A program made the translations under genes and the position numbers. A stretch of DNA of 64,000 nucleotides from a virus. Below, piece after piece: positions 15,431-64,000 of this stretch (within the stretch, counting starts at the first letter, position 1; the number at the start of each line of letters is the position of its first letter). The notes under the pieces were generated by a model. The model made no database searches. It saw only the letters and a program-made list of their open reading frames with translations, and was not told where the DNA came from. The stretch spans positions 28,026 through 92,025 of IMG/VR virus record IMGVR_UViG_3300009527_000006; one strand, given 5' to 3'.

Positions 15431-16159
15431 TTACTTGTTTTTTGAAGTACAGTAAATGGTTGTGTTTGTTTTGTTAGATGCTATTATTGAGCCTATATCT
15501 AGAATTTTTATATTGACTCCTTCTTTAACGGAAAGAATTCTATCTAAAAAATCTAACCGATATACATGTTCTTTGATAGCAAAAGAGTTATTGGACGAAA
15601 TTAAAATTTTCATTCCATCTAGATGATTTTGTTTTTTATCACCGAAGAATAGATATAAATTAGAATTTTCAGTCTCTAAACCAAATTTCTTATGCTCGGA
15701 TGAAAAGGAAAGTCCTTTTTTAAGTATCTGATACTGTTTCTCGTCAAGAGAAAACTCAGCTTGAATCTTTTTATACGCAAGTAAAGAAAAGGGATTGAAT
15801 GCTGGAGGAGCAACACTTGCATCAGTCAATAATCTTATTCTAAAAGAGTGATCTGCCCCACAATAAGTCAAAAATGAAAAATTGTTAATAGTTTCTACTC
15901 GAAGAACTACCAAATCATCTGCTATACATTCCAGTGCCTGACGAAGTTTAGAAATATCTAAATTTATTTTTTCCAGACCATCTGCAAATTCTTCTAATGT
16001 GAACGTAGAGTAAAAATGAACTTCATCTATTACAGATGAATAAATGGTATATACTTGATCATTTTTGAAGAAAAGTGTTCCCATTCCGTTTCTATTGATG
16101 GCTAATAGGGGATTTATAAACTCTGTAATAGCGCGTTTTCTATTGATCTTGAATGTCAT
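15431..16159 (-). CDS. putative sliding clamp (gp45-like)
   Basis: 242 aa, two-domain alpha/beta pattern, near gp32; no diagnostic motif. Confidence 0.5.
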   Translation of the reverse strand: MTFKINRKRAITEFINPLLAINRNGMGTLFFKNDQVYTIYSSVIDEVHFYSTFTLEEFADGLEKINLDISKLRQALECIADDLVVLRVETINNFSFLTYCGADHSFRIRLLTDASVAPPAFNPFSLLAYKKIQAEFSLDEKQYQILKKGLSFSSEHKKFGLETENSNLYLFFGDKKQNHLDGMKILISSNNSFAIKEHVYRLDFLDRILSVKEGVNIKILDIGSIIASNKTNTTIYCTSKNK

Positions 16160-16727
16160 TTTCGCTGTTGGTAGAAGGTTCTACTTCTTTAGTTAGTTTA
16201 GCATCTCTCACTTCCTCAAGCAACTCTTTAATCATCTTTTTTATTGCCCTAAGCTCAGACAGCATACTTTTTTCATAATCAGTGTTTTTTTCCTTTTTAG
16301 TAGAAGATGACTTATCTTGGGATGCCTCAAATCTATTATATTGAGGCATTGTGAAAGTAGCACCGCCTGAAGGAATATTAGGATTTTGTAAAGGATTATT
16401 ATACTGAGGAGGAGCATAATTCACCGGAGCATTATGATCTACAATCATATTTCCTTTTTCATCTATTCCTACTGGAACGGGAATAAAAGTTGGGGGGGTT
16501 TGCTCAATATTAACATTAAAATTTCCTACAGGATGTGACTGTATTTGCGGAATATGTGCCTGTTGAGGAATATTTCTATTAGAGCTTATAAATTTTTTCG
16601 GTGACACGTCATGGGTTCCCATAATATTATTAAGTTCACTTCTACGACTATTACTAAACAGTCTTTTCATTTCTTGTGAAGTAGAATGTGCTAATTTAGC
16701 CAAATCCATCATATCATCAGTTTGCAT
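16140..16727 (-). CDS. hypothetical P/Q-rich protein
   Basis: 195-aa ORF with TAAATA box 6 nt upstream. Confidence 0.55.
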   Translation of the reverse strand: MQTDDMMDLAKLAHSTSQEMKRLFSNSRRSELNNIMGTHDVSPKKFISSNRNIPQQAHIPQIQSHPVGNFNVNIEQTPPTFIPVPVGIDEKGNMIVDHNAPVNYAPPQYNNPLQNPNIPSGGATFTMPQYNRFEASQDKSSSTKKEKNTDYEKSMLSELRAIKKMIKELLEEVRDAKLTKEVEPSTNSENDIQDQ

Positions 16728-16756
16728 GGAGATTATTTATAAGTTAATATTAATAT

Positions 16757-16790
16757 AAAAAGGGGGAAGACGTAGGTCTTCCCCCTTTTT
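16757..16790. terminator. intrinsic terminator
   Basis: AAAAAGGGGGAAGAC-GTAG-GTCTTCCCCCTTTTT downstream of gp32. Confidence 0.85.
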
Positions 16791-16800
16791 TAATATCTAA

Positions 16801-17754
16801 TTAGATATTAACATCGTCATCATCATCATCATCCAAAATAAAGTCATTAAGACCATCGTCATCACCATCATCATTATCAACAACTCTATTCTGTGTTTGA
16901 GAGCGAGAATTTGTCGAGCTATTAACAGATTCATTGGCAATAGGACCATCCTCCCCAAACCAATACTGGTCAATGAGAGATTTGAGTTCGTCTTCAGACT
17001 TTACCGCAGGAACTAATTCCAAAAGATTGTGAACTGAATTTTCAATCCTCTCGTAATCAGAAGGTGACAAATTATCAACTGCTTTACTGTCAGCAAATTT
17101 TGAAGTAGAATAATTATTCCAATCAGCCTTTGTAGTAACACGGACAATCAGCGACCTTCCTTTAGGTGAAAGATCAAATGCCTTAATTCCTACATCATCT
17201 CCACCTAAAACTTCTTCATCAATAAGTTTCGCTAAATCACTCTTAATTTCACCAGTTTTCTTGTCTATACCAGCAGAATATTTAAGGACAACTACTGTTC
17301 CTATTTTTTGTTGTGCATCAGGATCATCGCCTTCCACTTTGTGCAAGAAGGCATTTACCAATTCATGACGCTGTGGAATCAATTTGTAACTACGCTTCAT
17401 AGCATCTTCATCACCACTCTTTTTGGCTTCACTAAAAAGCTTCCATTGTAGTTTGTTGATGTAATCATTTTTTGCTTGAGTAGGATCTGCATCTGATAGA
17501 GATCTTCCTAGATAAATGTATTCAGAAGGAGTTGTCAACGTCTCAAACCCAATATCTTTATAGTTTACAAAAGTTTGATCATTTCCATCTGAATCTGTGG
17601 AACGCAAAAGTCTTACATAGTATTTGCAATTTTTCTTGAATTTCAAGATTCTTGGATCAGAATTTCCAGACCCTCCACTTTTTTCCTTTTTAAGCTTTTC
17701 TGCTTTTGAATTTCTAATTTTTTCTAATGTTTCTTCTAATGTTGGTTTTCTCAT
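16801..17754 (-). CDS. single-stranded DNA-binding protein (gp32-like)
   Basis: 'DPRILKF..VRLL', 'AFDLSPKG', 'WNNYSTSKF', very acidic C-terminal tail. Confidence 0.8.
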   Translation of the reverse strand: MRKPTLEETLEKIRNSKAEKLKKEKSGGSGNSDPRILKFKKNCKYYVRLLRSTDSDGNDQTFVNYKDIGFETLTTPSEYIYLGRSLSDADPTQAKNDYINKLQWKLFSEAKKSGDEDAMKRSYKLIPQRHELVNAFLHKVEGDDPDAQQKIGTVVVLKYSAGIDKKTGEIKSDLAKLIDEEVLGGDDVGIKAFDLSPKGRSLIVRVTTKADWNNYSTSKFADSKAVDNLSPSDYERIENSVHNLLELVPAVKSEDELKSLIDQYWFGEDGPIANESVNSSTNSRSQTQNRVVDNDDGDDDGLNDFILDDDDDDDVNI

Positions 17755-17810
17755 AATATATTATTGTTCTTATTGTTCTTATTCTAGATAGAATATCTAT
17801 CCGAAAGTAT

Positions 17811-18434
17811 TTATAGTTTATTTGCCAGTATAACCTGATTTATAGTTTTTTTAAGCAATTTACTGGCAGAATATTTTGTATGTAAAAAATTTAATTGATC
17901 TTTCGTATCACCAAGATAAAGCTCATATTCTTCTGGTGGAAGATTAAGAAGTTTGGCAAAACCCTCTAGATAGAAAACGGTATATAGGTTAGTGCTTTTA
18001 TTTTTAAGATGAAGAAGATAATCTGGCTGATGAACAGTAGCATAGTTTAGGTAGTCTGTCAACTTTATTTTCTTTTCTTTACAGAAATCCAGCACAAATT
18101 TTACGCATTCTGTAGTATATCTAATATTATCAGGATGATCGGTATTTTCAGATACTAGTAAGTTTACATAGCTAGAACATACTAGCATACACTTAACTGT
18201 AGAAAAATAATTCAAAGAAAAAAACTTTTTATCTTTATAAATTTTATAGGGTGCGATAAAATATGTTCTTGACATTAGGTGAGGATGTTTTTGAAAAAAC
18301 TTTTCAAGTTTTTCAAGAGCACCCTTTTTAGAATCATCTAATTTTTCATATTTTAGCAAACTTTTACATGGGCGATCATTTGCTTCAGCAAGAGCCTCTA
18401 GGAAAAGATTGTAAATTTTTAATTTATTGTCCAT
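17811..18434 (-). CDS. hypothetical protein (helicase-loader gp59 position)
   Basis: ORF from MDNKLK, overlapping the upstream gene's stop; function by synteny only. Confidence 0.45.
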   Translation of the reverse strand: MDNKLKIYNLFLEALAEANDRPCKSLLKYEKLDDSKKGALEKLEKFFQKHPHLMSRTYFIAPYKIYKDKKFFSLNYFSTVKCMLVCSSYVNLLVSENTDHPDNIRYTTECVKFVLDFCKEKKIKLTDYLNYATVHQPDYLLHLKNKSTNLYTVFYLEGFAKLLNLPPEEYELYLGDTKDQLNFLHTKYSASKLLKKTINQVILANKL

Positions 18435-18888
18435 TGTTGCGACTATACAGAAATTTATCAATATTATCAAGACTTTCAGGACCAACTAGTTCTCCACTTA
18501 TAGCGATAGAATGGCCGTCTTTGAGCAAAGTTACTAATGACTCAACCACATCACTTGATAAAAAATCAAATTTAGCTCCTAGAAAAAATAAATATATTTG
18601 TTCTAAAGTTACAAGACCGTCTTTCCATTTAATATAATAAGAACAGAAATCAGTATATTTTACGAGAATATCTAGATAAGAATAAGCATTACTGTCGTTG
18701 TCTAAAATATTACTACAATCTATATGATCCTGATTTAAAAATTTTTCTTTACTAGAAAGGTAAGTTCCGCAATAATAAACAATTTCAGTATCTTTTGACA
18801 CCGTATTTGTAAAAAATTGTAGCGTTAGTGCAAATGATTCTAACCAAGTATCAAAATCGTAGTCAGGGCAGAGAGTTTTAATTTTCAT
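18424..18888 (-). CDS. hypothetical protein
   Basis: ORF from MKIKTL, just after a TTGACT..TATTCT promoter (18895-18922). Confidence 0.55.
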   Translation of the reverse strand: MKIKTLCPDYDFDTWLESFALTLQFFTNTVSKDTEIVYYCGTYLSSKEKFLNQDHIDCSNILDNDSNAYSYLDILVKYTDFCSYYIKWKDGLVTLEQIYLFFLGAKFDFLSSDVVESLVTLLKDGHSIAISGELVGPESLDNIDKFLYSRNNGQ

Positions 18889-18973
18889 AATAATAGAATA
18901 CAGCACATAATTCAGAAGTCAAGCGCTAAATTCAATCATTTAGATATTTTGAAGACACTACTAAATCACAAGA

Positions 18974-19062
18974 GGCGAACAAAACGGATGCAGACAACGC
19001 TCTATAAGTTGTTTGTCACATTCATAGTCTTTTATTCGCGTGTCTGATCCGAAGCGTTCGGG
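18974..19062 (+). repeat. attC site 1 (type A)
   Basis: GGCGAAC AAAA CGGAT(G)CAGACA(A)CGC...GCG TGTCTG ATCCG AAGC GTTCGGG; two extrahelical bases 6 bp apart. Confidence 0.88.
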
Positions 19063-19088
19063 CAATACGCATCCACACAAAATCACGC

Positions 19089-19529
19089 ATGTATAATAGA
19101 CCGTCTAATTCTGAAGTTGCGGAAATTACTGGATACAATCTTCCTATAGAAGAAATCTCAGAATTTCCCACAGCTAAACAGCAACAAGAAGGAGGTTATA
19201 TTTTGAAGTATATTGGCCGCATCTCAGATACTTGTGATACCTTCTTGAAAACTGCACATGGTAAGGTAGTTGCTATAATATTGCTTATCCATGGAATCAT
19301 CGGATTTGCTAGAGATGCATTTGATGGTGCAACATACATCTATAATGCATCTGCTCCTATGCTTGAAAGGATTGAGACTTTTGTATTTTCTCATAAGAAC
19401 CAAGAAGTCTCTCCCGAATACCTAGTATTGATCCCAAAAGAAACGCACCTGACACTGCCCGTAAAAGATTGGGCTGATTTTCCGGCAGGAACCCAATTTG
19501 CGCCAGCCAGTAGCATAGATTACACATAG
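19089..19529 (+). CDS. cassette 1 forward ORF, membrane-anchored hypothetical
   Basis: Starts ~30 nt after the GTT core; hydrophobic 'VVAIILLIHGIIGF'. Confidence 0.6.
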   Translation: MYNRPSNSEVAEITGYNLPIEEISEFPTAKQQQEGGYILKYIGRISDTCDTFLKTAHGKVVAIILLIHGIIGFARDAFDGATYIYNASAPMLERIETFVFSHKNQEVSPEYLVLIPKETHLTLPVKDWADFPAGTQFAPASSIDYT

Positions 19530-19608
19530 CCAACGATCCAAAATATATAAATGCAAATATTTCACAACAAACCCATACTTTATTCAAATAATTATATTTA
19601 TTAGACAT
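19357..19608 (-). CDS. cassette 1 reverse ORF, small 2-TM protein
   Basis: TATAAATA (19615-19622) 6 nt before ATG; two hydrophobic segments; overlaps the forward ORF. Confidence 0.45.
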   Translation of the reverse strand: MSNKYNYLNKVWVCCEIFAFIYFGSLAMCNLCYWLAQIGFLPENQPNLLRAVSGAFLLGSILGIRERLLGSYEKIQKSQSFQA

Positions 19609-19644
19609 TTTACCTATTTATAAAGACTTTAGACTAAAACAAGA

Positions 19645-19734
19645 CCCGAACAAAGAAACTGGAGACAACAGCTCAGCATAGTTATTCTCCTATATTAGTT
19701 CTGTGTTCGCTGTGTCTCAGTTTAGACGTTCGCC
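19645..19734 (+). repeat. attC site 2 (type B)
   Basis: CCCGAAC AAAG AAACT(G)GAGACA(A)CAGC...GCTG TGTCTC AGTTT AGAC GTTCGCC. Confidence 0.88.
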
Positions 19735-19758
19735 TAACAACACACAGCCTCTACTACA

Positions 19759-20031
19759 ATGTATAAAACTCAGCCTAAATATCGGGCCATCATTCGTTTC
19801 TCCTTGGATAAGGATGAGAGTTCAAAGTTTCGCAACTCTGTTATTAGAAAACTTAGAAAAGCTAAATTCACCAACACAAATAAGACTGGTTCTTGGGAGA
19901 CTCCATCCGCAGATTTATCTATTATTCAGTCATTAGTCTGCACCGTTATGAACGAACTAGGTAAAGTAACGAATGACGACGGAAAGCCCGTAACATTGGA
20001 CCATATGTGGATGTGCATAGATAAAGTTTAA
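19759..20031 (+). CDS. cassette 2 forward ORF, basic 90-aa hypothetical
   Basis: Starts ~30 nt after GTT; stop overlaps the reverse-gene stop (TTAA). Confidence 0.6.
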   Translation: MYKTQPKYRAIIRFSLDKDESSKFRNSVIRKLRKAKFTNTNKTGSWETPSADLSIIQSLVCTVMNELGKVTNDDGKPVTLDHMWMCIDKV

Positions 20032-20198
20032 TCTTCTTCGTTCCACCTAGGGTCATCATCTGACCATTCATTCCATCCAGATTCGATTTCGTCTGAGTCT
20101 GAATTGATAACTATTTTTGTTTTAGATTCAGTATGACACCCACAGTTGCCACATACGCCGCTAATAACGACTTCTATAGGTTGAGAATTATTTTTCAT
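20028..20198 (-). CDS. cassette 2 reverse ORF, 56-aa acidic CxxC peptide (not in ORF track)
   Basis: MKNNSQPIEVVISGVCGNCGCHTES...; ATAAATA at 20206-20212 upstream. Confidence 0.55.
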   Translation of the reverse strand: MKNNSQPIEVVISGVCGNCGCHTESKTKIVINSDSDEIESGWNEWSDDDPRWNEED

Positions 20199-20236
20199 AA
20201 TCAGCTATTTATTGGCAGCTCTTGCTATAAACAAGA

Positions 20237-20325
20237 GGCGAACAAAACGGATGCAGACAACGCTCTATAAGTTTTATGTCACATTCAGAGTTTAGTATTC
20301 GCGTGTCTGATCCGAGACGTTCGTC
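20237..20325 (+). repeat. attC site 3 (type A)
   Basis: Arms near-identical to attC1; ends GTTCGTC. Confidence 0.88.
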
Positions 20326-20912
20326 TTATGAAATGCCACCCAGTGAGTCTGCGCTTTCTTGCCGCTACGGTGGCCGTAGAGCGGGCGTTCTGGCGTGAGT
20401 GCCAGCACTTCGCGGAGCGGGATTTCAGCCTCGCACCATTTGAAGATCATCGTTCCATTCACTTTCAGGACACGGAAGCATTCAGCGAATCCCGCCCGCA
20501 GGTCGTCGCGCCATGTCGCATCCAGAAGCCCGAAGTCGAAGGCGATGCGTCCCGTTGCCCCGGCTCCTTTATGGAAGTGCGGCGGATCGAATACCACATG
20601 CCAGAACGACTCATCAGGGAACGGCATGTTTCGGAAGTCCACCACCATATCAGGCGCGACGGTTTTCGGGGTGCGCCCGATGGTTCCCGGCGTTCCCACG
20701 TCGATGATTCGCGTGCCTTGGCGTTTGTCCACATACAGGGCGCGGTCATCCTGTTTATCGAACCAGAACATTCTGGTTGAGCAGCACGCATCCAATACCG
20801 GAGGCAAAGACGAACAAGTCGCTGCATGCAACCCGCTTTCTGCGTGCTGTTGGCGCGTTAATGTGAAGAGGTCATCCATAGGTGTATCGGTGTATTGTGT
20901 CAGCGGGTGCAT
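20292..20912 (-). CDS. cassette 3: class I SAM-dependent (probably DNA adenine) methyltransferase, GC-rich
   Basis: 'VLDACCSTRMFWFDK', 'DFRNMPFPDESF..VVFDPPH', 'ECFRVLK..FKW'; start lies inside attC4 and stop inside attC3. Confidence 0.85.
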   Translation of the reverse strand: MHPLTQYTDTPMDDLFTLTRQQHAESGLHAATCSSLPPVLDACCSTRMFWFDKQDDRALYVDKRQGTRIIDVGTPGTIGRTPKTVAPDMVVDFRNMPFPDESFWHVVFDPPHFHKGAGATGRIAFDFGLLDATWRDDLRAGFAECFRVLKVNGTMIFKWCEAEIPLREVLALTPERPLYGHRSGKKAQTHWVAFHKTNVSDQTREY

Positions 20913-20928
20913 GAGCTAGGCGTTCGCC
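20809..20928 (+). repeat. attC site 4 (type C, canonical geometry)
   Basis: GACGAAC AAGTC GCT(G)CATGCA(A)CCCGCT...AGCGGG TGCATG AGC TAGGC GTTCGCC. Confidence 0.92.
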
Positions 20929-20937
20929 TAAAAACCA

Positions 20938-21192
20938 ATGCACTCATCACAAACTAATTCGCAGATGATAATCGCGCACATGCTAGCCAATGATAACGGA
21001 GCCATTTTTCATTTTGAGGACTATAGATTCAATGTTCGTCCTGAAGATCGAGTCACTTCCAGCAATTGGCCTAGTGGTATAACATTGCACATTAGACTTT
21101 CTAGCACAGGGCTGAGCGCAGCTTCTTACGAGAACGAGACAGTGCTCGGTGAATATGTGGATGAAAGAGGAACTCCCATTTTGCCTTATTAG
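20938..21192 (+). CDS. cassette 4 forward ORF, 84-aa hypothetical
   Basis: Starts ~10 nt after the R' box; stop overlaps the reverse-gene stop. Confidence 0.55.
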   Translation: MHSSQTNSQMIIAHMLANDNGAIFHFEDYRFNVRPEDRVTSSNWPSGITLHIRLSSTGLSAASYENETVLGEYVDERGTPILPY

Positions 21193-21428
21193 GAATTATT
21201 ACTTGGATCATTCGGAATTGCATGGCCGAATCTCAGCACTTCACCATTGTCATATAGATAGGCCATTCCACGAATTCCAAAAGGACCATTATACTTACCT
21301 TTCTCATTCTGTATTTTTATGTTCTCGTGCATAGTCCATCTTCGCCAGATTCCAATAGCTTCATCATACGGAAGTGCCTCTGGATCTGGGTATTTGGTTA
21401 AGTCTATTGGGTTGTCTAAATTTAACAT
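21189..21428 (-). CDS. cassette 4 reverse ORF, ~79-aa hypothetical
   Basis: TAAGTA box (21438-21443) upstream of ATG 21428. Confidence 0.6.
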   Translation of the reverse strand: MLNLDNPIDLTKYPDPEALPYDEAIGIWRRWTMHENIKIQNEKGKYNGPFGIRGMAYLYDNGEVLRFGHAIPNDPSNNS

Positions 21429-21468
21429 ATTCAAAGCTACTTATTCGTAGTCAAATGCTAAAACAAGA

Positions 21469-21558
21469 GGCGAACAAAGAAACTGGAGACAACAGCTCAG
21501 CATAGCTATTCTCCTATATTAGTTCTGTGTTCGCTGTGTCTCAGTTTAGATGTTCGCC
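21469..21558 (+). repeat. attC site 5 (type B)
   Basis: Nearly identical to attC2; GGCGAAC...GTTCGCC. Confidence 0.88.
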
Positions 21559-21573
21559 CAACCTCACCACACC

Positions 21574-21759
21574 ATGTCTATTATAAAGAAACCTAGTTCG
21601 TGCGTATTTTGCAGATCTGCACTGATTAAAGGTCCGATTAAGAGAGATCGTAATTTAAATGAAACTATTGAAATGAAGAGTGTCGTTTATATTTGTGAGC
21701 AATGTAATTTTGTTCACGAATTTAATATTCATACTACTAAAAAATCTAAGATGAAGTAG
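21574..21759 (+). CDS. cassette 5 forward ORF, zinc-ribbon protein
   Basis: CVFC...CEQC motif pair; AC-rich leader. Confidence 0.65.
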   Translation: MSIIKKPSSCVFCRSALIKGPIKRDRNLNETIEMKSVVYICEQCNFVHEFNIHTTKKSKMK

Positions 21760-21910
21760 TAGACACGAAACATGCAAGCCCATCACATTGAGCATTCCAC
21801 ATTTCATCCAGAATTCTATCATTATTTTCCTGTTCTTCTTTGGAAAGTCTCATCCAATGACACTGCTCCACTTCTAACCATTCACGTATCTTTGCTTTTA
21901 TCCATTGCAT
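21746..21910 (-). CDS. cassette 5 reverse ORF, 54 aa (not in ORF track)
   Basis: MQWIKAKIREWLEVEQCHW...; TAAGTA box 21920-21925 upstream. Confidence 0.55.
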   Translation of the reverse strand: MQWIKAKIREWLEVEQCHWMRLSKEEQENNDRILDEMWNAQCDGLACFVSTTSS

Positions 21911-21949
21911 AGTAGTCAATACTTATGAAGCTAATAAACAGAAACAAGA

Positions 21950-22038
21950 GGCGAACAAAACGGATGCAGACAACGCTCTATAAGTTTTATGTCACATTCA
22001 TAATTTTATATTCGCGTGTCTGATCCGAGACGTTCGGG
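21950..22038 (+). repeat. attC site 6 (type A)
   Basis: Arms identical to attC3; ends GTTCGGG. Confidence 0.88.
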
Positions 22039-22194
22039 TAAAACAGAACATAAACACCACAATGAATGAATCTACGTTAGTTGATTGCGCTAAATGGTTA
22101 TATGAAAAGCAGCAAGAGAACCTAAAAGCCGGAAAGAATCTACTTTGGCAGCCACATATAATAACCGTTCTTTTAAACTTACAAAAATCTAAAG

Positions 22195-23421
22195 TCATAC
22201 TTTTAAGATATAAACTCTCGATTTTTTGTTAAATTCCTGCTTCACAGACGGGCTAACCAAAGTCGTTTCCGACAATGGTGAACTCCCATCTCCACAGGCT
22301 TGAATTCCCGAAGAACTTTCGGTATAAATTTGTTTCAGATTCAAACTCGCATTTAAATCTCTATCTATTTTCATATCACACATTTTACATTCAAATACTC
22401 GGTCTGTCAACTTCAAATCTGAATTTTTCCATCCGCAACATGAACATAATTTAGAACTGGCGTAGAAAGTATCTGCGAAGACAACTTTTCTATTATTCCA
22501 TTTCGCTTTATATTCAATTTGGCGACGAAATTCATAAAGTCCTACGTCACTGATAGCCTGAGCCAAACAGTGATTTTTCAACATATTGCTTACTTTCAAA
22601 TCTTCCAACACAATTACATTGTTTTTCTGTATTATGTTAGAAGTGATTCTATGTAAGCAATCTTTACGAATATTTGATATGTGATAATGTAATTTTGCTA
22701 ACTTTTGTTTTGCTTTTCCATAATTTTTACTTCCTTTTTTCTTTCTTGATAATTGTTTTTGTTTGCGTTTTAGTCTCTTGAGATTTTTCTTTAATGCTTT
22801 TGGATTTTCATAAGTTGTCCCATCTGAGCAAGTAGCTAAAGTTTTAATACCTAAATCAATTCCTACTACCTCATTCTTGGCGTTAGAATGCTCTCTGTCA
22901 GGTGTCTCTACTTGAACTGATACAAACCACTTACCCGCACGTTTCGAGACTGTAGCAGACAGTATTTTACAATCTGTTGGGATGTAATCTTTCTCGGATA
23001 ATTTGAGTTTGTCGATTCGTGGTAGCTTAATGTAATCAGATTCAACTGAAATCGCGCCGTCTAGTCTGAAGGATTGCTTTTCGTTTTTCTTAGATTTAAA
23101 TTTTGGAAATCCTTTCTTACCTTTAACTTTCTTTTTACAACGAGTGAAGAAATTTTGAAATGCTTTATCACAATCTCTTAACGCATTTTGTGGAGAAGTC
23201 TTGCTTGAATTATACATCCAAGGAACATCTGTCTGTTTTAGCTTGTTTAATTCTCTATGAATCTCAATAGCATTTTGAATTTTCTCTTTCTTATCAAATT
23301 GTTCTTTCTTTTTAGCTAATGCCCAATTATATGCCCATCTAGCGCAACCAATATGCTGTAATAACAAGGTTTGTTGCTTGTTATTTACATCTAGCTGAAC
23401 TTTATAGGCGCGGAGAATCAT
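22195..23421 (-). CDS. tnpB: RNA-guided endonuclease TnpB
   Basis: HTH_OrfB N-terminus, RuvC GIDLG / VLEDL / DRDLNAS, zinc finger CSCC..CKMC; all catalytic residues present. Confidence 0.95.
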   Translation of the reverse strand: MILRAYKVQLDVNNKQQTLLLQHIGCARWAYNWALAKKKEQFDKKEKIQNAIEIHRELNKLKQTDVPWMYNSSKTSPQNALRDCDKAFQNFFTRCKKKVKGKKGFPKFKSKKNEKQSFRLDGAISVESDYIKLPRIDKLKLSEKDYIPTDCKILSATVSKRAGKWFVSVQVETPDREHSNAKNEVVGIDLGIKTLATCSDGTTYENPKALKKNLKRLKRKQKQLSRKKKGSKNYGKAKQKLAKLHYHISNIRKDCLHRITSNIIQKNNVIVLEDLKVSNMLKNHCLAQAISDVGLYEFRRQIEYKAKWNNRKVVFADTFYASSKLCSCCGWKNSDLKLTDRVFECKMCDMKIDRDLNASLNLKQIYTESSSGIQACGDGSSPLSETTLVSPSVKQEFNKKSRVYILKV

Positions 23422-24283
23422 TTTAATCTTTCTAAACAAATATCATAATACTCTTTTTCTTTTTCGATGCCGATAAACTGACGATTGAGATTTTTGGCGG
23501 CAACCAGAGTTGTTCCCGAACCAGCAAAAGGATCGAACACCAAATCCTCTTTATTTGAGATAGACTTCACCAAGTCTTCCATCATATTCAACGGTTTTTC
23601 ACATGGATGTTTGTCTTTTCTTTGCGAGACTATTTCATATTCAATTACATCTTCAAATGAAGATAGCGATAACGAATCAAATTTTCGTTTGGATAATTTA
23701 ATACCTAAATCTCCTCTAATTTGGGAAGAAATTTTGGAGATGGAAAGCATCTACCACATTCCCAATTTGATACTTGACCACCATTATTAACGTTTCCATA
23801 AGCACCCAATATTTCAGTAAGCTCTTTTACCGATACCCCCTTAGAAATGCGGGCATTCTTAATGTCATTTGGATAAGAATCTTGTGAAAAATAAATTATT
23901 CTTTCTGATGCTGGATATGGTCGTCTAAGGGAATTTTTATTACACTTATTTTTCCAACCCTCACTCCCCTTATTTGGAAAAGTTTTCTTCCACACAATTT
24001 CAGATTGGAAATTGAAATATTGATTTATCAGGACGGCTAAAAATGGAGCCAATGATGGCTTACAAAAAACGTAACCACTACAAGTATTTTTCATCTTCGG
24101 TTTAAGAATTTTGAAAAAATAATCAAACCATTTTAAAAATTCAGTATCGTTATCATGTTCATTGTCCCAAGTGTGCTTTTTAACATTGTGATAAGGTGGA
24201 TCGGTGACAAGGATATCCACGCTTCCATCTGGAATGTCCTTCATCAATTCTAAACAGTCGCCATGCCAAATTTCTTGTTTCAT
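23418..24283 (-). pseudogene. N6/N4 DNA methyltransferase (beta class) with inserted XRE HTH, frameshifted
   Basis: 'GDCLELMKDIPDGSVD..TDPPY' in 23705-24283; 'HPCEKP..DPFAGSGTT..IGIE' in 23418-23750; one extra T at 23707-23709 joins them (EEILGIKL). Confidence 0.85.
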
Positions 24284-25311
24284 TCCATCGCCTCCTTTTC
24301 TTTCTTTTTACGATTCTGTGAGCTAATCATACCCAATCCTTCTCTAATTAGATACAGGCGACCAGTCGAAGTTTTTAACTCTTTTGCTACGCCTCTCCAA
24401 GTTTGATGTTTATCAAACAAATCGTGCAGTTGTTTTACTGTAATATCTGAACGCTTTTTCCGTAAAATTTGCTGAGATAGACACTCTAAATATAATTCAT
24501 ACTTTCTATCCAAATACACTTTAGCGTTTGAGTATATTGGTCTTAATATGTTTTGAACTAACTCGACCCCCGCCGAAGATATGCAGCAAGTTTCTGAATC
24601 TCCCTCTCCATATTTTGATAGGATTTTTGCGCGACATTTGCTATACGAAAGAATATACTCTTGAAATTTCTCAATAACAAGCCTATTTCCAACAAGATTA
24701 ATTGTCCACACCCAAGATTTTTTATATTTGGGTTCAAGCGTTTTAGAAATGCAGCCATCACCGTCAAATATGCCTCGCCAAAAATGACAGTGTAAATCCT
24801 TTGGAATTAAATTTAACGGAGGAATAAAGCTAAAAGATTTTCTCGGTAAAATACCAAATTTAGCCAAATCATTGCATATTTTTCTGTTACCAATTACAAT
24901 TCGACACGACTCAAATATTTTACTATTATCACCCCCTTCAAAAGAGGGCGAACTTCTACATATTTTAATTGGATGCGCCGAACGGCAAAATTTCTTAAAT
25001 TTTTCTAAGTGCAACAAATCTGACTTTTTTAAACCTATATTCAATCCTCCATAATCGGTTACGTTGCCGTCGGCGGCAATGAATCCAAGCCAATAAGCCT
25101 TATCTTCTGTGTCAATTTTTTCAAAAATAGAATCGTCAATAGTATATTTAGAGTTATTTTTAATTTTGATACCCCTTTTTTTGGCTTCTCTGGTGCAGCA
25201 TTCGCTACTTAATCCGTAAACAGCCGCCGCCCTTTGTGCAGAATCCCCGTTTACATATAGATTAATCATTCCGTCCTTTTCTTCTTGTGTAATAGTGCGT
25301 CTCATATACAT
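24280..25311 (-). CDS. free-standing LAGLIDADG homing endonuclease
   Basis: 'KAYWLGFIAADG' and 'HFWRGIFDGDG' motifs; HTH-like termini. Confidence 0.9.
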   Translation of the reverse strand: MYMRRTITQEEKDGMINLYVNGDSAQRAAAVYGLSSECCTREAKKRGIKIKNNSKYTIDDSIFEKIDTEDKAYWLGFIAADGNVTDYGGLNIGLKKSDLLHLEKFKKFCRSAHPIKICRSSPSFEGGDNSKIFESCRIVIGNRKICNDLAKFGILPRKSFSFIPPLNLIPKDLHCHFWRGIFDGDGCISKTLEPKYKKSWVWTINLVGNRLVIEKFQEYILSYSKCRAKILSKYGEGDSETCCISSAGVELVQNILRPIYSNAKVYLDRKYELYLECLSQQILRKKRSDITVKQLHDLFDKHQTWRGVAKELKTSTGRLYLIREGLGMISSQNRKKKEKEAME

Positions 25312-25327
25312 ATATTTACACTAAAAA

Positions 25328-25888
25328 TCACTCTTTTTCACAAAAATCTGATAAAACTTCATCATCGGGATAGATTTCTGTAGTCACCTCTTCCACCTTT
25401 TCAATTCTAACTCCATAGGAATTAAAATAAGACAAAAGATAATTAAAACAAAATCTTGATAATCTATCTTTATGCTCAATTAAGACTACATCAATTTCTT
25501 TCTTTTCTACTAACTCAAAAAGTTTCTGCAATTTCTTGCGATTGTCGTTCATTCCTGAACCAACTTCATCAAAAACAGCAACAATAGAATAACCACGCTT
25601 CAATGCCTCTGTAGTCATTCTGCCGACTTGTCTTTCTAAATCACCTTTAGTCTTCTGTTCATGTGAACTAACGCGACAATAGATAGCCACACGCTTACCA
25701 TCTGTTACTTTAACAGGTTCTACATAGATTCCCGCCAATTTCTCAATATCGGCTCTGTAATAGCGTCTATGACCACCTTTTGTATGGAATGGCGTTAATT
25801 TGCCTTCTCGCTCCCAATTTCTAAGAGTTTCGTCGGAAACGCCTAAAATGGACGCAGCATCACTAATTGATAGAATCTTTTTATCCAT
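25328..25888 (-). CDS. tnpA: IS607 transposase TnpA (MerR HTH + serine resolvase), C-terminally disrupted
   Basis: 'TLRNWEREG..TKGGHRRY', 'IYCRVSS..DLERQ', 'EHKDRLSRF'; usual C-terminal helix missing. Confidence 0.9.
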   Translation of the reverse strand: MDKKILSISDAASILGVSDETLRNWEREGKLTPFHTKGGHRRYYRADIEKLAGIYVEPVKVTDGKRVAIYCRVSSHEQKTKGDLERQVGRMTTEALKRGYSIVAVFDEVGSGMNDNRKKLQKLFELVEKKEIDVVLIEHKDRLSRFCFNYLLSYFNSYGVRIEKVEEVTTEIYPDDEVLSDFCEKE

Positions 25889-26057
25889 TTTTGTCTATCA
25901 ATCCTTTCTGTTGAAACAACCTAAACCATTCGTCATAGATTCGTTGAAATTCCTCTACGGTTGGAACTTCATCTAATTCAAACGGAATATCATGGATAAC
26001 TCCATCATCGGTTTCAAATTCTGTTGCTGTAACTCTTGTAATCATTTTTGGCTTCAT
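25881..26057 (-). CDS. 58-aa ORF at IS left end (not in ORF track)
   Basis: MKPKMITRVTATEFETDDG...VPTVEEFQRIYDEW; overlaps the tnpA start; TAAATA box upstream. Confidence 0.6.
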   Translation of the reverse strand: MKPKMITRVTATEFETDDGVIHDIPFELDEVPTVEEFQRIYDEWFRLFQQKGLIDKNG

Positions 26058-26248
26058 ATATATTTACACTAAAAGTTTAGATTTTCTACGAAAAAAGTGA
26101 AAATATTTTAACTTTCTTTAGATATTTTAGATTATCGGGCAACTGTTGTCAACCCTCGGAAAGTTGTGGTTACTATTTGTTTCCTGTTTTGCGATATTAT
26201 CCACTGCTCTGATCACCGAGTTTATAAAACAAGATGGGTATAAGTTGT

Positions 26249-26503
26249 TTAAGTCCAGCCTAAATAATGAACACACAAAAGCATCGGAACCACCCCCATC
26301 ACAAACAACAAAACACATAAAATAATCAACCATCCTAATGCCATGAAGAGGCATTCTACAAAAGCCTTAAACTCACCATCAAACCCGAACAAAACGGATG
26401 CAGGCAACACCTCTGGGCTGTCTGTCGTATTATTCATAGTATTTTCGTTCGGTGTGCCTGATCCGAGACGTTCGCCTTCTGCTAATTTAGTTTGTTTTTT
26501 CAT
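26249..26503 (-). CDS. cassette 6 reverse ORF, membrane peptide read through attC7
   Basis: ATAAATA 26511-26517 before ATG 26503; second in-frame ATG (26437) inside attC7; hydrophobic C-half. Confidence 0.5.
   Translation of the reverse strand: MKKQTKLAEGERLGSGTPNENTMNNTTDSPEVLPASVLFGFDGEFKAFVECLFMALGWLIILCVLLFVMGVVPMLLCVHYLGWT
26384..26476 (+). repeat. attC site 7 (type A variant)
   Basis: CCCGAAC AAAA CGGAT(G)CAGGCA(A)CACC...GGTG TGCCTG ATCCG AGAC GTTCGCC; compensatory changes relative to attC1. Confidence 0.88.
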
Positions 26504-26671
26504 CAAAAGCTATTTATGAAATAATATTATTAATTCAACCAGCATAATAATAACCATGTTTAACTACCTAAAGACTAGCTTGTGTCAATTTTGTAAAGGA
26601 ACCACTGACCCATCCACAAAGAAAGAGATTTAAACTCTTCATTTGAGATAAAGTGTGTTATTTATATTTTT

Positions 26672-26763
26672 GAGGCTCTATAAGTTTTATGTCACATTCA
26701 TAGCTTAGAACTCACTATGTCTCAGCGTAAACTTACCATTCATGTCTGCGCTAGGCGTTTGCC
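26672..26763 (+). repeat. decayed attC site 8
   Basis: Type A loop 'GCTCTATAAGTTTTATGTCACATTCATA' with left arm deleted; right arm TGTCTGCGCTAGGCGTTTGCC. Confidence 0.65.
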
Positions 26764-26782
26764 TTAACTGCATAATGTTCAA

Positions 26783-27064
26783 CTACAGTGGAACCAAATC
26801 TTCAAATTTTATTTTCTTACTTTTATGAAGAATTGGATATTTATTAGAAAGAATTTCTACTATCTCAAACCAAGAAAGATTTGTCATATCTATGAAAATA
26901 TCACGTAAATTTTGGCTTTTTTCAAGAGTTAAATATAAATGAATACATGATACAGGTTTATCATATACAGTCGTCAAAAACCCTCCTAAACACCTAAATT
27001 GATGGTCTAGTTCTTCTCGGTCAATGAGTTCAAATGCAGTAGGCTGCTCAAGATTTTTAATCAT
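26783..27064 (-). CDS. hypothetical protein
   Basis: 93-aa ORF following the helicase. Confidence 0.5.
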   Translation of the reverse strand: MIKNLEQPTAFELIDREELDHQFRCLGGFLTTVYDKPVSCIHLYLTLEKSQNLRDIFIDMTNLSWFEIVEILSNKYPILHKSKKIKFEDLVPL

Positions 27065-27109
27065 ATTTTTACTTAAAAAAATAAAAATCTATTGCAATAA
27101 TTTACTGTT

Positions 27110-28465
27110 TTAGGTTGTCATAAATTCTTCCATCGAGAATTTCTTTTTCAATATACTTGACCTAGAATCTTCATATGATTGCTCAGTATCTTCTTCTTCA
27201 AAAAATCTCAGTGTGCTATAATCAATATTCAAGTATCCCCCGCCATTGAGAGCACCGTCTCTAGATTTCTTACCCTTAACTAATACTCTGTTAAGTTCAC
27301 GGTCTTCATCTGTTTGTGACATGACTGTAAGATTATCAAAATCGCCTAGCATTGAATATGAACCAGCCATATTATCCAAGTCAGCAGAATTATTTCGATG
27401 TCCGTCTCTATTGAGTTGTGCAGGAGTTAATAGAGGGCATTCAAAAATATAACTGAGCCCTCTTACTTCTTGAGTAATATACTGAAATTCGTCGTGCTTA
27501 GGAACATTGCTTTTTGTAGATTTACATAGAGTAATATAATCCAGTATTATCACCGATGGTTTGAAATTTTTCTTTCTTTCTAATTTTTTAATAAAGGATT
27601 TAATGTTAGTAGGAGTCACTGATTTAGCCGCGAACTCTTTGATTACTAATCTAGAAGTTTTATCAGAAATAAAATCATCCACATACTCTCTATACTCTAA
27701 TAGCCTGTCTCCTATTTCTCCTAGAGCAATACCCGTTAACATACCAGAAATTCTACGAGCATATCTTTTTTCACTCATTTCTAAAGTTATAATTACTACA
27801 TCCTCATTCTGTCTGAGAATGTTAGTTCCAATGTTTCCCACCAAAAGTGATTTTCCGACATTAGTGGAGCCAGCTACGCCATATATTGCTCGCCCTTCTT
27901 TAAACATTCCTCCACCAAATGCTTCATCCACTATCTTATATCCGGTGCTTAGAAAAACATCCTTTTCAGTTAAAATAGATTCTACCCTACTTCTTTCGGC
28001 AAAATATTCCAACCCTAGATTATCTACTAATGAAATATTAGATATAGTTTCTTGTTCAGTTTGAAAATCATCTAAATCTATTTCTTGTTTTTCTGTCTTA
28101 TCATCAATAGCCTTTTCTAGAAGATTTTCTGTTTTTCTCTGCTTTATAAAATACTCTGCATTAGCAAGCAATTCGTCTTCATTACATTCATCCGCAATAT
28201 TTTCATTTTTTATAAGATCAATCGCTTTTTTAAGATGTTCTTTATTTTTAGTAGTATTAAACCGGGTTTTTAATTCTGTAAAATTAGGAACTGCGGACCT
28301 TTCTACATAAAAATCTTTAATAGTCTGTGCTATTGCAGAGAAGTTTTCGTTTTTGAAAATATCTGCTCCAATATATTCTATGCAAGAACCTAGTAATATT
28401 CCATCTTTTTTGAGAAGATTCTTCATAAGAATCTTCTCAAAAAAATCTAAATCAATTTTGCTCAT
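27110..28465 (-). CDS. DnaB-like replicative helicase (gp41)
   Basis: Walker A 'GSTNVGKS', 'ITLEMSE', 'IILDYI', 'AQLNR', 'KSRDG'. Confidence 0.92.
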   Translation of the reverse strand: MSKIDLDFFEKILMKNLLKKDGILLGSCIEYIGADIFKNENFSAIAQTIKDFYVERSAVPNFTELKTRFNTTKNKEHLKKAIDLIKNENIADECNEDELLANAEYFIKQRKTENLLEKAIDDKTEKQEIDLDDFQTEQETISNISLVDNLGLEYFAERSRVESILTEKDVFLSTGYKIVDEAFGGGMFKEGRAIYGVAGSTNVGKSLLVGNIGTNILRQNEDVVIITLEMSEKRYARRISGMLTGIALGEIGDRLLEYREYVDDFISDKTSRLVIKEFAAKSVTPTNIKSFIKKLERKKNFKPSVIILDYITLCKSTKSNVPKHDEFQYITQEVRGLSYIFECPLLTPAQLNRDGHRNNSADLDNMAGSYSMLGDFDNLTVMSQTDEDRELNRVLVKGKKSRDGALNGGGYLNIDYSTLRFFEEEDTEQSYEDSRSSILKKKFSMEEFMTT

Positions 28466-28474
28466 ATGTATTTG

Positions 28475-28768
28475 CTAGACTATAGCATATGTAACCTCTA
28501 ACAGTCTAGAAGAATCTTTAGATAGGTATTTCATTTCTACCCATTTTTCAAAATAATCTCCGGTAACTTGATCTTCCAGTTCGGTAGGCTGGTCAGTATA
28601 AAAATTACCGCTTTTATATAATTTATATAATTGTCCAGCAGTGACTACTAATTTTGCCCCATTAGCATCTACTGTTTCTATAGCAGGGGTAGATTCATCA
28701 ATATGAAAATATTGAATCTTAGGTTTGTCTACAAACATCGAAGTCTTTTTTATTGTGACACGAATCAT
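28475..28768 (-). CDS. hypothetical protein
   Basis: 97-aa ORF coupled to uvsX (4-nt overlap). Confidence 0.55.
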   Translation of the reverse strand: MIRVTIKKTSMFVDKPKIQYFHIDESTPAIETVDANGAKLVVTAGQLYKLYKSGNFYTDQPTELEDQVTGDYFEKWVEMKYLSKDSSRLLEVTYAIV

Positions 28769-29784
28769 ACGTTATCTGGATTTAATGCAAACATCTTATT
28801 GCACATAGTTTTGAAAGACGCATCTTCTACTAGTGATTGCATAAGATTATCAGTTTCTTCTAGCTCTTTGCGTCTAAAAACTTTGTCATTGCCAATGAGT
28901 TTATACCATCCTTGCTTTTCTGAATAGATATGTTTAGTTTCAAGTGCAAGGTCAAATATTCCAGAGTATTTAGAAATTCCATCATCAAAACTAACGGTTA
29001 CTGGAAAATCGGATTTTTCTCTGACATATCTAGAAAATTTTGATTTCAATACAAAATCAAATCCAGTCAATTCAGAATCAACCTTCTTTTGTCGTTTTCC
29101 AATATTCCACAACGTATGTCCAGCATATTCTGCCCCTCTTCCTCCAGAAGCCTTTTCTTCAGGAAACATGTCCATTGTTTGGTAGCTATGATTAATTACT
29201 ATACAAGTAATGCCCTTGAAATTTATCTGTCCATTAGCAATTCGGAATACAGATTTCAACGCCTTTGCTCTAGTGAAATCAGCTTTATCATTTTCGTTCT
29301 TTGCATCCTCTACTTCTTTCGCACTGGCTAACATACCAATACTATCGACGCAAATAAGAACCTTATCACCGACTTCTATATCAGTAACTAAATTAGCCAA
29401 ATCACTCTTCCACTGTTCTACAGTAAAAATAGGTCTTCTGTCAAAATTTTCACCCGGACGAATATCTATTCCTACTCCTTCAAAATATGAATTAGGTGAG
29501 CCGAACTCCGAATCATAAAAAATGATGAGATTATCTTGGTCCTTATACTTCCTTTGGAACGACTTCATTGCTTGAATCATTAGATTAGTTTTGAAGTGCT
29601 TTGGTGGAGCAGCAATCATAACTATCCCAGCCGGAAGACCTTTATCGAAAGATCCTGATATTGCTAAATTAAGAATAGGAACATCAAAAGGTATAAAATT
29701 TTCAGATTCCCAATAATTAGATTTCTCTAATATTTTTTTATCAATTACAGTATTGGCACGAAGTTTATCAAAAAGTTTTGACAT
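28765..29784 (-). CDS. uvsX: RecA-like recombinase
   Basis: 'AAPPKHFKT', 'FYDSEFG', 'DSIGMLAS.KEVEDA..ADFTRAK', 'SGGRG'. Confidence 0.93.
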   Translation of the reverse strand: MSKLFDKLRANTVIDKKILEKSNYWESENFIPFDVPILNLAISGSFDKGLPAGIVMIAAPPKHFKTNLMIQAMKSFQRKYKDQDNLIIFYDSEFGSPNSYFEGVGIDIRPGENFDRRPIFTVEQWKSDLANLVTDIEVGDKVLICVDSIGMLASAKEVEDAKNENDKADFTRAKALKSVFRIANGQINFKGITCIVINHSYQTMDMFPEEKASGGRGAEYAGHTLWNIGKRQKKVDSELTGFDFVLKSKFSRYVREKSDFPVTVSFDDGISKYSGIFDLALETKHIYSEKQGWYKLIGNDKVFRRKELEETDNLMQSLVEDASFKTMCNKMFALNPDNV

Positions 29785-30214: not shown

Positions 30215-30520
30215 TTATGCAAGAAAATAATCTTCTTTCTTTAGAGAATCTTGTCTATCATACTCTTGCCTAACACCTATTTTGAAATTCATTACTAAAT
30301 TATCTTTTTCAAATTGCTCTCTTTGAACTGCTTTTATAAGTTTAGTAACATCATTAGAATACAATCTATACAATTCTTGCTTAGAAATCCACCGACCCTC
30401 AGAAAAATCATCAGATATAATTTCTATATCACGATTTTCAAAAACACTCTGATACGATCTATATAATTCAGCAGAGTATTTGTTTTTAATACTTAAAAAT
30501 TTCTGATATAGGTGCTTCAT
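30215..30520 (-). CDS. hypothetical protein
   Basis: 101-aa ORF overlapping the polymerase end. Confidence 0.45.
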   Translation of the reverse strand: MKHLYQKFLSIKNKYSAELYRSYQSVFENRDIEIISDDFSEGRWISKQELYRLYSNDVTKLIKAVQREQFEKDNLVMNFKIGVRQEYDRQDSLKKEDYFLA

Positions 30521-63817: not shown

Positions 63818-64000
63818 TTACATAGGAGGTGGTTCCTCTGTTGTAGGAGGTGGTTCTGTTGTAGGAGGTGGTTCTGTTGTAGGTTCCTCTGTTGTAGTTG
63901 TAGTTGTAGGTTCCTCTGTTGTAGTTGTAGTTGTAGGTTCCTCTGTTGTAGTTGTAGTTGTAGGTTCCTCTGTTGTAGTTGTAGTAGGTTCCTCTGTTGT
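63818..64000 (-). CDS. 3' end of a Thr-rich repeat protein (TTEEP/TTTTT), truncated by window
   Basis: ~27-bp tandem repeats GGTTCCTCTGTTGTAGTTGTAGTTGTA; stop at 63818. Confidence 0.7.
   Translation of the reverse strand, partial: TTEEPTTTTTEEPTTTTTTEEPTTTTTTEEPTTTTTTEEPTTEPPPTTEPPPTTEEPPPM

Follow-up and report, generated by a model that had tools for sequence, protein, structure and literature searches.

The 64,000 nucleotides analysed here (the window) are the last 64 kb of the IMG/VR virus record IMGVR_UViG_3300009527_000006, a linear record of 92,025 bp with 32.7% GC and an estimated completeness of about 35% (CheckV). Inside a T4-like replication module, the window carries an array of seven imperfect palindromes that delimit six cassettes. 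We read this region, with considerable confidence, as an integron-type cassette array without an integrase in a T4-like phage, that is, as a cluster of attC sites lacking an integron integrase (CALIN), and the integron integrase (IntI) of the host is the most likely agent of its recombination. Five observations carry this reading: the structure of the sites, their membership in a family that occurs in bacterial integrons, cassette boundaries that fall at the GTT triplet of the sites, one cassette that is shared with other arrays, and the natural presence and absence of this same cassette.

The seven palindromes are 85-116 nt long, lie all on the + strand between positions 18976 and 26474 of the window and were found by repeat finding, direct reading and a motif scan; in the entire 92,025-bp record, the motif scan detected no copy outside the array. 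They fall into four sequence types (A, A', B and C) and are listed together with a decayed remnant that follows them; scores are from R1, a covariance model made of six window sites and four relatives.

18976-19060, + strand: site 1, type A (R1 84.9 bits; fold)
19647-19732, + strand: site 2, type B (R1 86.6 bits; fold)
20239-20323, + strand: site 3, type A (R1 85.7 bits; fold); left-hand boundary of the methyltransferase cassette at its GTT (20319)
20811-20926, + strand: site 4, type C, GC-rich, part of the imported methyltransferase cassette (R1 38.7 bits, E 2e-6)
21471-21556, + strand: site 5, type B (R1 85.2 bits; fold z -4.3)
21952-22036, + strand: site 6, type A (R1 87.2 bits; fold z -3.9)
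26386-26474, + strand: site 7, type A' (R1 92.7 bits; alignment)
26675-26767, + strand: decayed remnant with 3' halves only, a type-A loop and after it an end that resembles type C and has GTTTG (repeat families D3 and D17)

Copies of type A (repeat family D1) are 78-84% alike over 122 nt and those of type B (D2) 94% over 110 nt; along the array the types follow each other as A, B, A, C, B, A, A'. An earlier reading of this stretch from its letters alone (the sequence-only reading) had given the same order and had described seven palindromes in one orientation, each with a core, an unpaired spacer and two extrahelical bases 6 bp apart; all of this was reproduced by repeat finding, motif scan, R1 and folds of all four sequence types. 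The remnant that it had placed near 26672 exists, but only in part: a stretch of 39 nt matches the type-A loop at 90% and one of 21 nt the type-C 3' end at 86%, there is no 5' arm, and the piece can neither fold into a site nor does it obtain an R1 score. Of all sites, site 7 resembles the Verrucomicrobiota consensus most and also has its loop motif TCTGTCGTATT; an open reading frame (ORF) of 85 codons on the - strand (26249-26506), behind ATAAATAGC, runs through this site and has TCTGTCGTATT inside it. The loop of site 4 (20878-20897) holds a decayed second copy of the site's own 3' arm (ATCCATAGGTGTATCGGTG, versus ATCCATGAGCTTATGCGTT in other copies of the cassette), and the duplicated arm results in two in-frame ATG starts for the methyltransferase gene.

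Folded as DNA, all four sequence types have one geometry. The outer part consists of a 5-bp stem (CGAAC/GTTCG), an internal loop of 4x4 nt in types A, B and A' and of 5x5 nt in type C, and an L box of 5 bp (3 bp in type C); the inner part consists of a 1-nt bulge (G), 6 bp, a further 1-nt bulge (A), a stem of 3-5 bp and a variable loop. Both single-base bulges sit on the AAC-bearing arm of the + strand, and the arm sequences vary by type with the pairings kept. The z-scores of single-sequence folds are modest (-0.7 to -4.3), and support for the structure comes from covariation: in an alignment of 55 family members from the window and other loci, which was fitted to the model and thus flatters the pairing figures, 95.5% of the cells are paired, and both sides vary in 15 of the 20 pairs. 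None of 500 shuffles reached the observed level, slid controls paired at 22-42%, and compensatory changes are visible in plain MAFFT alignments too. R1, a check of the kind that the sequence-only reading had named, picks out, with default filters, these seven sites and no others in the 64-kb window (the model being built from these sites and their relatives), and the same seven only between 12000 and 32000 with the filters switched off. Six sites score 85-93 bits on the + strand versus 13-22 bits on the - strand; site 4 reaches 38.7 bits with default filters and 21.3 bits without. An Rfam scan of 18000-28000 returned chance-level matches only.

An attC site has an R box with AAC/GTT as the sole conserved triplet, an unpaired central spacer, an L box and a variable terminal structure; the R''/R' consensus is RYYYAAC/GTTRRRY, and two or three extrahelical bases lie on the bottom-strand arm opposite AAC; the proximal base is usually a G, the distal base is a conserved T, and a stem of 6 bp separates them (Nivina et al. 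2016, PMC5027507). All these structural features are present in the seven sites. AAC and GTT are found in each of them (and at each position in 53-55 of the 55 family members), the internal loop takes the place of the central spacer, the distal bulge is A on the top and T on the bottom strand in 55/55 members, the proximal one is G on the top and C on the bottom strand in 54/55, and 6 bp separate the two. Conserved structure goes along with variable sequence, with loops of about 25 to more than 70 nt, and the cassette boundary falls at G|TT, with the following bases matching the cassette's own R''. Because the AAC arm of the + strand bears the bulges, + is the top strand and - the bottom strand. 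Compared with canonical attC sites of mobile integrons (attCaadA7, VCR; PMC5027507), R box, spacer, L box, distal T and 6-bp stem are shared and the length of the phage sites is within the usual range; the phage sites differ by GTTCGSC, by the proximal C and by an L box of mostly 5 bp.

The family extends far beyond this phage. The 22-mer of the type-A arm is found on five other IMG/VR contigs and in at least 120 stretches of species-representative genomes; the type-B arm 22-mer has no match in IMG/VR. The 80 matches listed are all from Verrucomicrobiota (among them Verrucomicrobiaceae, Prosthecobacter, Akkermansiaceae, Luteolibacter and Chthoniobacteraceae) except for one metagenome-assembled genome of the Gemmatales and one metagenome chromosome, and many form same-strand arrays, for example 11 exact copies within 8 kb at locus L051. 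The integron integrase profile TIGR02249 exceeded its curated cut-off in three of five family genomes examined first, in all four further genomes with R1 hits and in none of 14 control genomes. In genome G091, R1 sites run 1-2 kb upstream of each intI start and divergent from it: contig C10 has intI at 24052-24960 (- strand) and R1 sites on the + strand at 26112, 26584 and 27850, and contig C3 has intI at 293261-293974 (- strand) and R1 sites on the + strand from 294953 through 299604. This is the canonical layout of intI and array and confirms independently that the + strand is the top strand. Genome G010 has the same orientation of intI and array, weaker and with fewer sites; the flanks of intI in G009 (L136, L139) have no R1 site. 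In G007 and G010, sites are scattered over many contigs, as small clusters and singles distant from intI (in G007, 26 sites or more on six contigs, several of them at contig starts), which suggests many CALINs or insertions at secondary sites.

The site family is the attC family of Verrucomicrobiota chromosomal integrons, and Verrucomicrobia had already been listed among the integron-bearing phyla (Cury et al. 2016, PMC4889954). With the chromosomal integrons and CALINs of this phylum (PMC4889954) the phage sites share the attC family (R1 up to 93 bits), the GTTCG core, the bulged bases and the cassette footprint, and the loop motif TCTGTCGTATT of site 7 is common to many bacterial sites. The bacterial sites have 55-65% GC, lie in genomes of 55-62% GC and are in some cases placed beside intI, whereas in the phage the loops of the sites are AT-rich (42-49% GC) and intI is absent from the vicinity. 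Two of the five other viral contigs with this family are phage contigs of 55-57% GC with terminase, portal and tail genes: G001 with nine sites (L001, C1:15827-20048) and G005 with seven (L005, C1:35577-39731), the latter rated 100% complete and the only one of the two with a match to a major head protein. A tyrosine recombinase (PF00589) was found in none of the five.

Likewise, there is no PF00589 match in the 92 kb of our record, which is about 35% complete and includes the whole replication module, and the array is therefore classed as a CALIN. CALINs are defined by at least two attC sites on the same strand, less than 4 kb apart and with no integrase nearby; sites 1-6 follow each other at 480-672 bp. 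An insertion sequence (IS) between sites 6 and 7 puts the latter 4.35 kb past the former, and the default 4-kb rule would split site 7 off. A complete integron is not seen, as the record has no tyrosine recombinase and no attI-like start left of site 1; the best candidate for the start of a 'cassette 0' on this side, GTTCTCCACTTA at 18489, has three mismatches and is within chance. The sequence-only reading had seen no tyrosine recombinase in the 64 kb, and this holds for the entire 92 kb; a serine recombinase at 25328-25888, part of an IS607/TnpB element, had been overlooked.

An integron integrase might be encoded by the phage itself in the remaining ~65% of its genome, and the locus would then be a complete phage integron whose array is split from intI. 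The record is only 35% complete, a 126-kb contig holds a protein identical to the 90-aa protein of cassette 2, complete integrons exist in temperate phages (Qi et al. 2023, PMC9892861), and the phage-like composition of five cassettes suggests long residence. We still consider a phage-encoded integrase unlikely: intI normally adjoins its array, the 92 kb with the entire replication module have no PF00589 match, and such a match is also missing from two further phages that carry arrays of this family, of which one is rated 100% complete. Since the site family is of the Verrucomicrobiota integron type, the integrase is most likely the IntI of the host.

The locus also has traces of recombination. 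Integrons are cut within the GTT triplet, and the bases after the cut belong to the next cassette and match its own R''. In the window, bases 3-6 past GTT pair with the inner end of the next site in 17 of 24 cases and with the end of their own site in 10 of 24, with 10.7 +/- 2.3 expected for the next site at random assignment (P 0.011); at L001, the numbers are 28/32 and 10/32. As the R'/R'' pairing lies within each cassette, it is independent of the order in which the cassettes were assembled. This R'/R'' chain is the footprint of cassettes that were once circular.

Cassette 3, which encodes a DNA methyltransferase, recurs with 90.5-92% nucleotide identity on four metagenome contigs of 55-60% GC (L144-L147). 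BLAST matches begin at 20307-20319, the alignment puts the start at the GTT of site 3 (20319), and the sequence upstream differs in every contig. R1 sites flank the methyltransferase gene, on the opposite strand, in L144-L146 and in the ~81% identical copies L148-L149. L144-L149 keep the 5' arm of site 4, and a compensatory change has occurred in the site's 6-bp stem (CATGCA/TGCATG in the window versus CATGGA/TCCATG in the contigs). This cassette is common to the phage array and other attC arrays, with its boundary at GTT.

Natural variants were looked for in metagenome contigs placed on positions 16000-29000 of the window for the reading of junctions and depth. The likely source run, a groundwater metagenome, has 98% of the words of this region, and three runs from two other freshwater samples and studies have 24-29% (X2, and X3 plus X4 from one sample); the small shares in runs X5-X11 were left aside. 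A contig of the independent freshwater run X2 joins 20317 to 20921; its short side is 60 nt, 6 nt fit both sides and the 420-nt piece on the window (20921-21340) has no mismatches. It is the phage locus minus exactly the methyltransferase cassette, with a joint between a type-A and a type-C site. These two types have only the 6-nt core in common, so homologous recombination cannot make this joint, but a cut in the core can. The attC identity proposed by the sequence-only reading is supported by this variant together with the intI-adjacent arrays of the family, the R'/R'' chain and the shared cassette with its GTT boundary. In X4, a joint from 20228 to 21942 removes cassettes 3-5 between two type-A sites; 59 nt fit both sides and site-specific and homologous exchange explain it equally well. 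A second joint in X2 (19723 to 26466) has a short side of only 21 nt and was not used as evidence. Other contigs diverge at site ends (after 22036, after 19738 and before 18969), two of the continuations being AT-rich and one, after 22036, not, which suggests that other populations have other cassettes at these positions.

T4-type phages have promoter-early stem-loops (PeSL), promoter-plus-terminator units that shuffle modules by homology. The repeats of our array could now act in a similar way, mainly as portable homology for UvsX-type recombination of the phage, with integrase action a thing of the past. UvsX is encoded 2 kb from the array, stretches within the site types are long and alike (the 122 nt of D1 and the 110 nt of D2), homologous exchange explains the X4 joint equally well, and the two systems share repeated stem-loops around small accessory ORFs in a plastic T4-type region, from which circular forms of ORF plus repeat are expected. 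Unlike PeSL modules, the present sites have the fine structure of attC, belong to a family that is found beside bacterial intI and have boundaries at GTT. Moreover, homologous recombination predicts neither the X2 joint between two site types with 6 nt in common, nor homology with foreign arrays that begins exactly at GTT, nor the R'/R'' chain, which requires a cut inside the core; a present role mainly as portable homology is thus very unlikely.

Depth in the source run is even (8-11x) over backbone and cassettes, and its contigs lead from the backbone into site 1 (16000-18997), from the GC-rich cassette 3 into the AT-rich cassette 4 and site 5 (20258-21500) and from site 7 into the helicase gene (26126-29000), which answers the concern of the sequence-only reading about a chimera at the array borders. 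A fragment of a bacterial integron misjoined into a phage contig would fit with sites of a bacterial family and with one cassette of 58% GC in a 33% GC genome, and repeats do break short-read assemblies, with Logan contigs ending at most sites. Given the even depth, the links between backbone, sites 1 and 7 and the two kinds of cassette in a second assembly, the phage-like composition of five cassettes and of the site loops, and the fact that portions of the locus with phage flanks turn up again in three runs (two other samples and studies), we regard such an artefact as extremely improbable.

Cassette 6 owes its length of 4.4 kb to the IS element inside it, which has the following parts:

22165-26125, - strand: IS607-family element, ~3.96 kb, ends approximate (Pfam; loose contig ends at 22164-22166 and 26098-26155)
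22195-23439, - strand: TnpB
23418-23750 and 23705-24283, - strand: N6_N4 methyltransferase, in two frames
24280-25311, - strand: LAGLIDADG protein
25328-25888, - strand: MerR-HTH serine recombinase TnpA

The two pieces of the N6_N4 methyltransferase correspond to positions 1-110 (23705-24283) and 156-219 (23418-23750) of the Pfam profile; a frameshift, programmed slippage or a sequencing error might account for the split. A derivative with TnpB only, ~10% diverged and with a joint from 22990 to 26093, is present in contigs of the source run and of X4, and other flanking sequences appear at 22164; there are therefore further copies of the element elsewhere. The serine recombinase TnpA belongs to this element and is no candidate for the attC sites. 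That the hairpins are recognition sites of the element or of its recombinase, as its position between sites 6 and 7 and the use of subterminal hairpins by IS200/IS605-family elements might suggest, is extremely improbable: between the element ends (~22165 and ~26125) and sites 6 and 7 there are still 130-260 bp, no IS lies near the other five sites, and in the bacterial loci that were searched, though not for IS607 genes, R1 suffices to account for the arrays.

For the phage CALIN, we propose that the - strand, as single-stranded DNA, folds into a hairpin with R box, unpaired spacer, L box and a flipped-out C and T that lie 6 bp apart on the arm opposite AAC. The integron integrase would cut the R box and exchange strands between two folded sites; cassettes would leave as circles and enter at another site. 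The IntI of a Verrucomicrobiota host would act in the infected cell, and T4-type replication and recombination may provide abundant single-stranded DNA. The best reading remains that of the sequence-only reading, a shufflable platform on which a host IntI, or an integrase encoded elsewhere by the phage, would act; we infer the acting integrase, the timing of its action and the functions of the cassettes.

Several points weigh against host-driven recombination of a verrucomicrobial attC array. In an even draw of 121 genomes from the phylum, strict filters left matches in only six: the family is not phylum-wide, and either the host group is narrow or the host inference is loose. Between the GC content of the phage (33%) and that of the family-bearing Verrucomicrobiota (55-62%) there is a 25-point gap, which is wide for a phage and its host. 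R' reads GTTCGSC, with a C where GTTRRRY has a purine, and the flipped base of the L box is C rather than the usual G. R1 tests family membership and, being built from these sites and their relatives, is no independent test of attC identity. At the left end of the array, no attI or start site was found. The cassette order depends on short-read assembly resolving repeats of 85 nt, and most sites coincide with breaks in Logan contigs. No integrase was found in the 92 kb, ~35% of the genome, and the recombinase is thus unobserved. Finally, host expression is usually shut down by T4-like phages, and IntI may be less active as a result.

The cassettes are, from GTT to GTT, 672, 591, 603, 630, 480 and 4438 bp long. 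Cassettes 1, 2, 4, 5 and 6 have 35-41% GC, with 32 +/- 3.4% in the backbone; cassette 3 is the only one that is foreign in composition (58% GC). Their ORFs, other than those of the IS element, are:

19089-19529, + strand: cassette 1, ORF of 146 aa, orphan
19357-19608, - strand: cassette 1, second ORF, overlapping the 146-aa ORF
19759-20031, + strand: cassette 2, ORF of 90 aa (75%-identical homologue; identical protein on the 126-kb contig)
20028-20198, - strand: cassette 2, convergent ORF of 56 aa
20292-20912, - strand: cassette 3, class I S-adenosylmethionine-dependent DNA methyltransferase (phrog_954, E 8e-61)
20938-21192, + strand: cassette 4, ORF of 84 aa
21189-21434, - strand: cassette 4, convergent ORF of 81 aa
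21574-21759, + strand: cassette 5, ORF of 61 aa, Cys-rich
21746-21919, - strand: cassette 5, convergent ORF of 57 aa
26127-26354, - strand: ORF between the IS element and site 7

The top-strand ORF of each cassette begins 20-30 nt past GTT, as in ordinary cassettes. In most cassettes there is also a bottom-strand ORF, which is convergent with the top-strand ORF, begins 40-70 nt from the CGAAC core of the next site and runs in the direction of the flanking phage genes; three of these ORFs are preceded, by 5-10 nt, by the T4-late-promoter-like ATAAATAG (at 19614, 20205 and 26510). The methyltransferase gene has its start inside site 4 and its stop inside site 3 and is oriented like the phage genes, against the attC sites' top strand. 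Homologues of its protein reach 92-94% identity, one of them being named Verrucomicrobiota, and homologues with 87-92% sit on 23-kb contigs; the protein query found none in five Verrucomicrobiota genomes. When the array was compared with the INPHARED phages by blastn, the methyltransferase was the sole match, a distant one. The methyltransferase of cassette 3 has come recently from the pool of bacterial cassettes, and a possible role is protection of the phage DNA from restriction. Pfam and PHROGs have nothing for the remaining small cassette ORFs.

The sequence-only reading had placed the array inside a T4-like replication module, and the neighbouring genes agree with this:

16801-17754, - strand: gp32-like single-strand DNA-binding protein, left flank (phrog_224, E 2e-8)
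27110-28465, - strand: gp41-like DnaB-type replicative helicase, right flank
28765-29784: UvsX-like recombinase, beyond the helicase
30486-33044: gp43-type PolB, beyond the UvsX-like gene

SbcC-, UvsW- and Dda-like genes follow further on. PolB has ~31% identity to T4-likes of the pelagiphage and cyanophage kind: the genome that hosts the array is that of a distant T4-like phage, which is probably virulent. The helicase identified no close phage relatives in IMG/VR, and the locus could therefore not be compared across sister genomes. The record closes with a 27-nt tandem repeat (4.7 copies, 97% matches; 63876-64000 of the window), preceded by an 18-nt repeat (63823-63883); these terminal repeats are probably the reason why the assembly ended at 64000.

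CALINs have been described from phages before: 17 were found among 10,705 phage genomes, virulent phages included, IntI1 recombined five of the six phage attC sites tested, and methyltransferase cassettes were noted in the phage arrays (Qi et al. 2023, PMC9892861). The view of the sequence-only reading that attC arrays are absent from such phages is outdated by these 17 phage clusters, and its claim of absolute novelty was too strong for a kind of array known since 2023. The array presented here resembles the published phage CALINs in having attC sites without an integrase, a phage with no sign of lysogeny, a methyltransferase cassette and mostly one-way cassettes. It differs in number of sites, with seven plus a remnant versus three in TJE1, the one phage array for which the count is stated in the legend (Qi et al. 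2023, PMC9892861), in its position within a T4-like replication module, in its verrucomicrobial attC type, in its mostly phage-like cassettes, in the natural presence and absence of a cassette and in having a cassette in common with other arrays; recombination was tested by experiment there, whereas the evidence here is from sequence. What is new is thus a seven-site array in a T4-like replication module with an attC type that points to Verrucomicrobiota, together with the mostly phage-like cassettes, the direct sequence evidence of natural gain or loss of a cassette and a cassette shared with non-phage arrays.

We tentatively suggest that T4-like and other phages of Verrucomicrobiota may keep a long-lived, phage-adapted cassette pool, with bottom-strand genes behind ATAAATAG that would be read by phage transcription, and that the host IntI could shuffle these cassettes among co-infecting phages and bacterial arrays; this is possible, but somewhat less likely than not to apply in full. 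The unrelated phages G001 and G005 carry arrays of the same family, and the phenomenon may be common in the phages of this phylum. For an uncultured phage, the attC type offers a clue to the host, in this case Verrucomicrobiota. With its GTT junction and the variant that lacks the very same cassette, the locus is unusually direct sequence evidence of cassette traffic between phage and non-phage arrays. Many anti-phage defence systems are known to be carried by integron cassettes; a lytic phage with access to this cassette system can take its counter-measures, in this case a DNA methyltransferase, out of one and the same pool. If the suggested phage-adapted cassette pool exists, integrons would be a gene market shared by bacteria and lytic viruses, with anti-restriction cassettes moving towards the phages.

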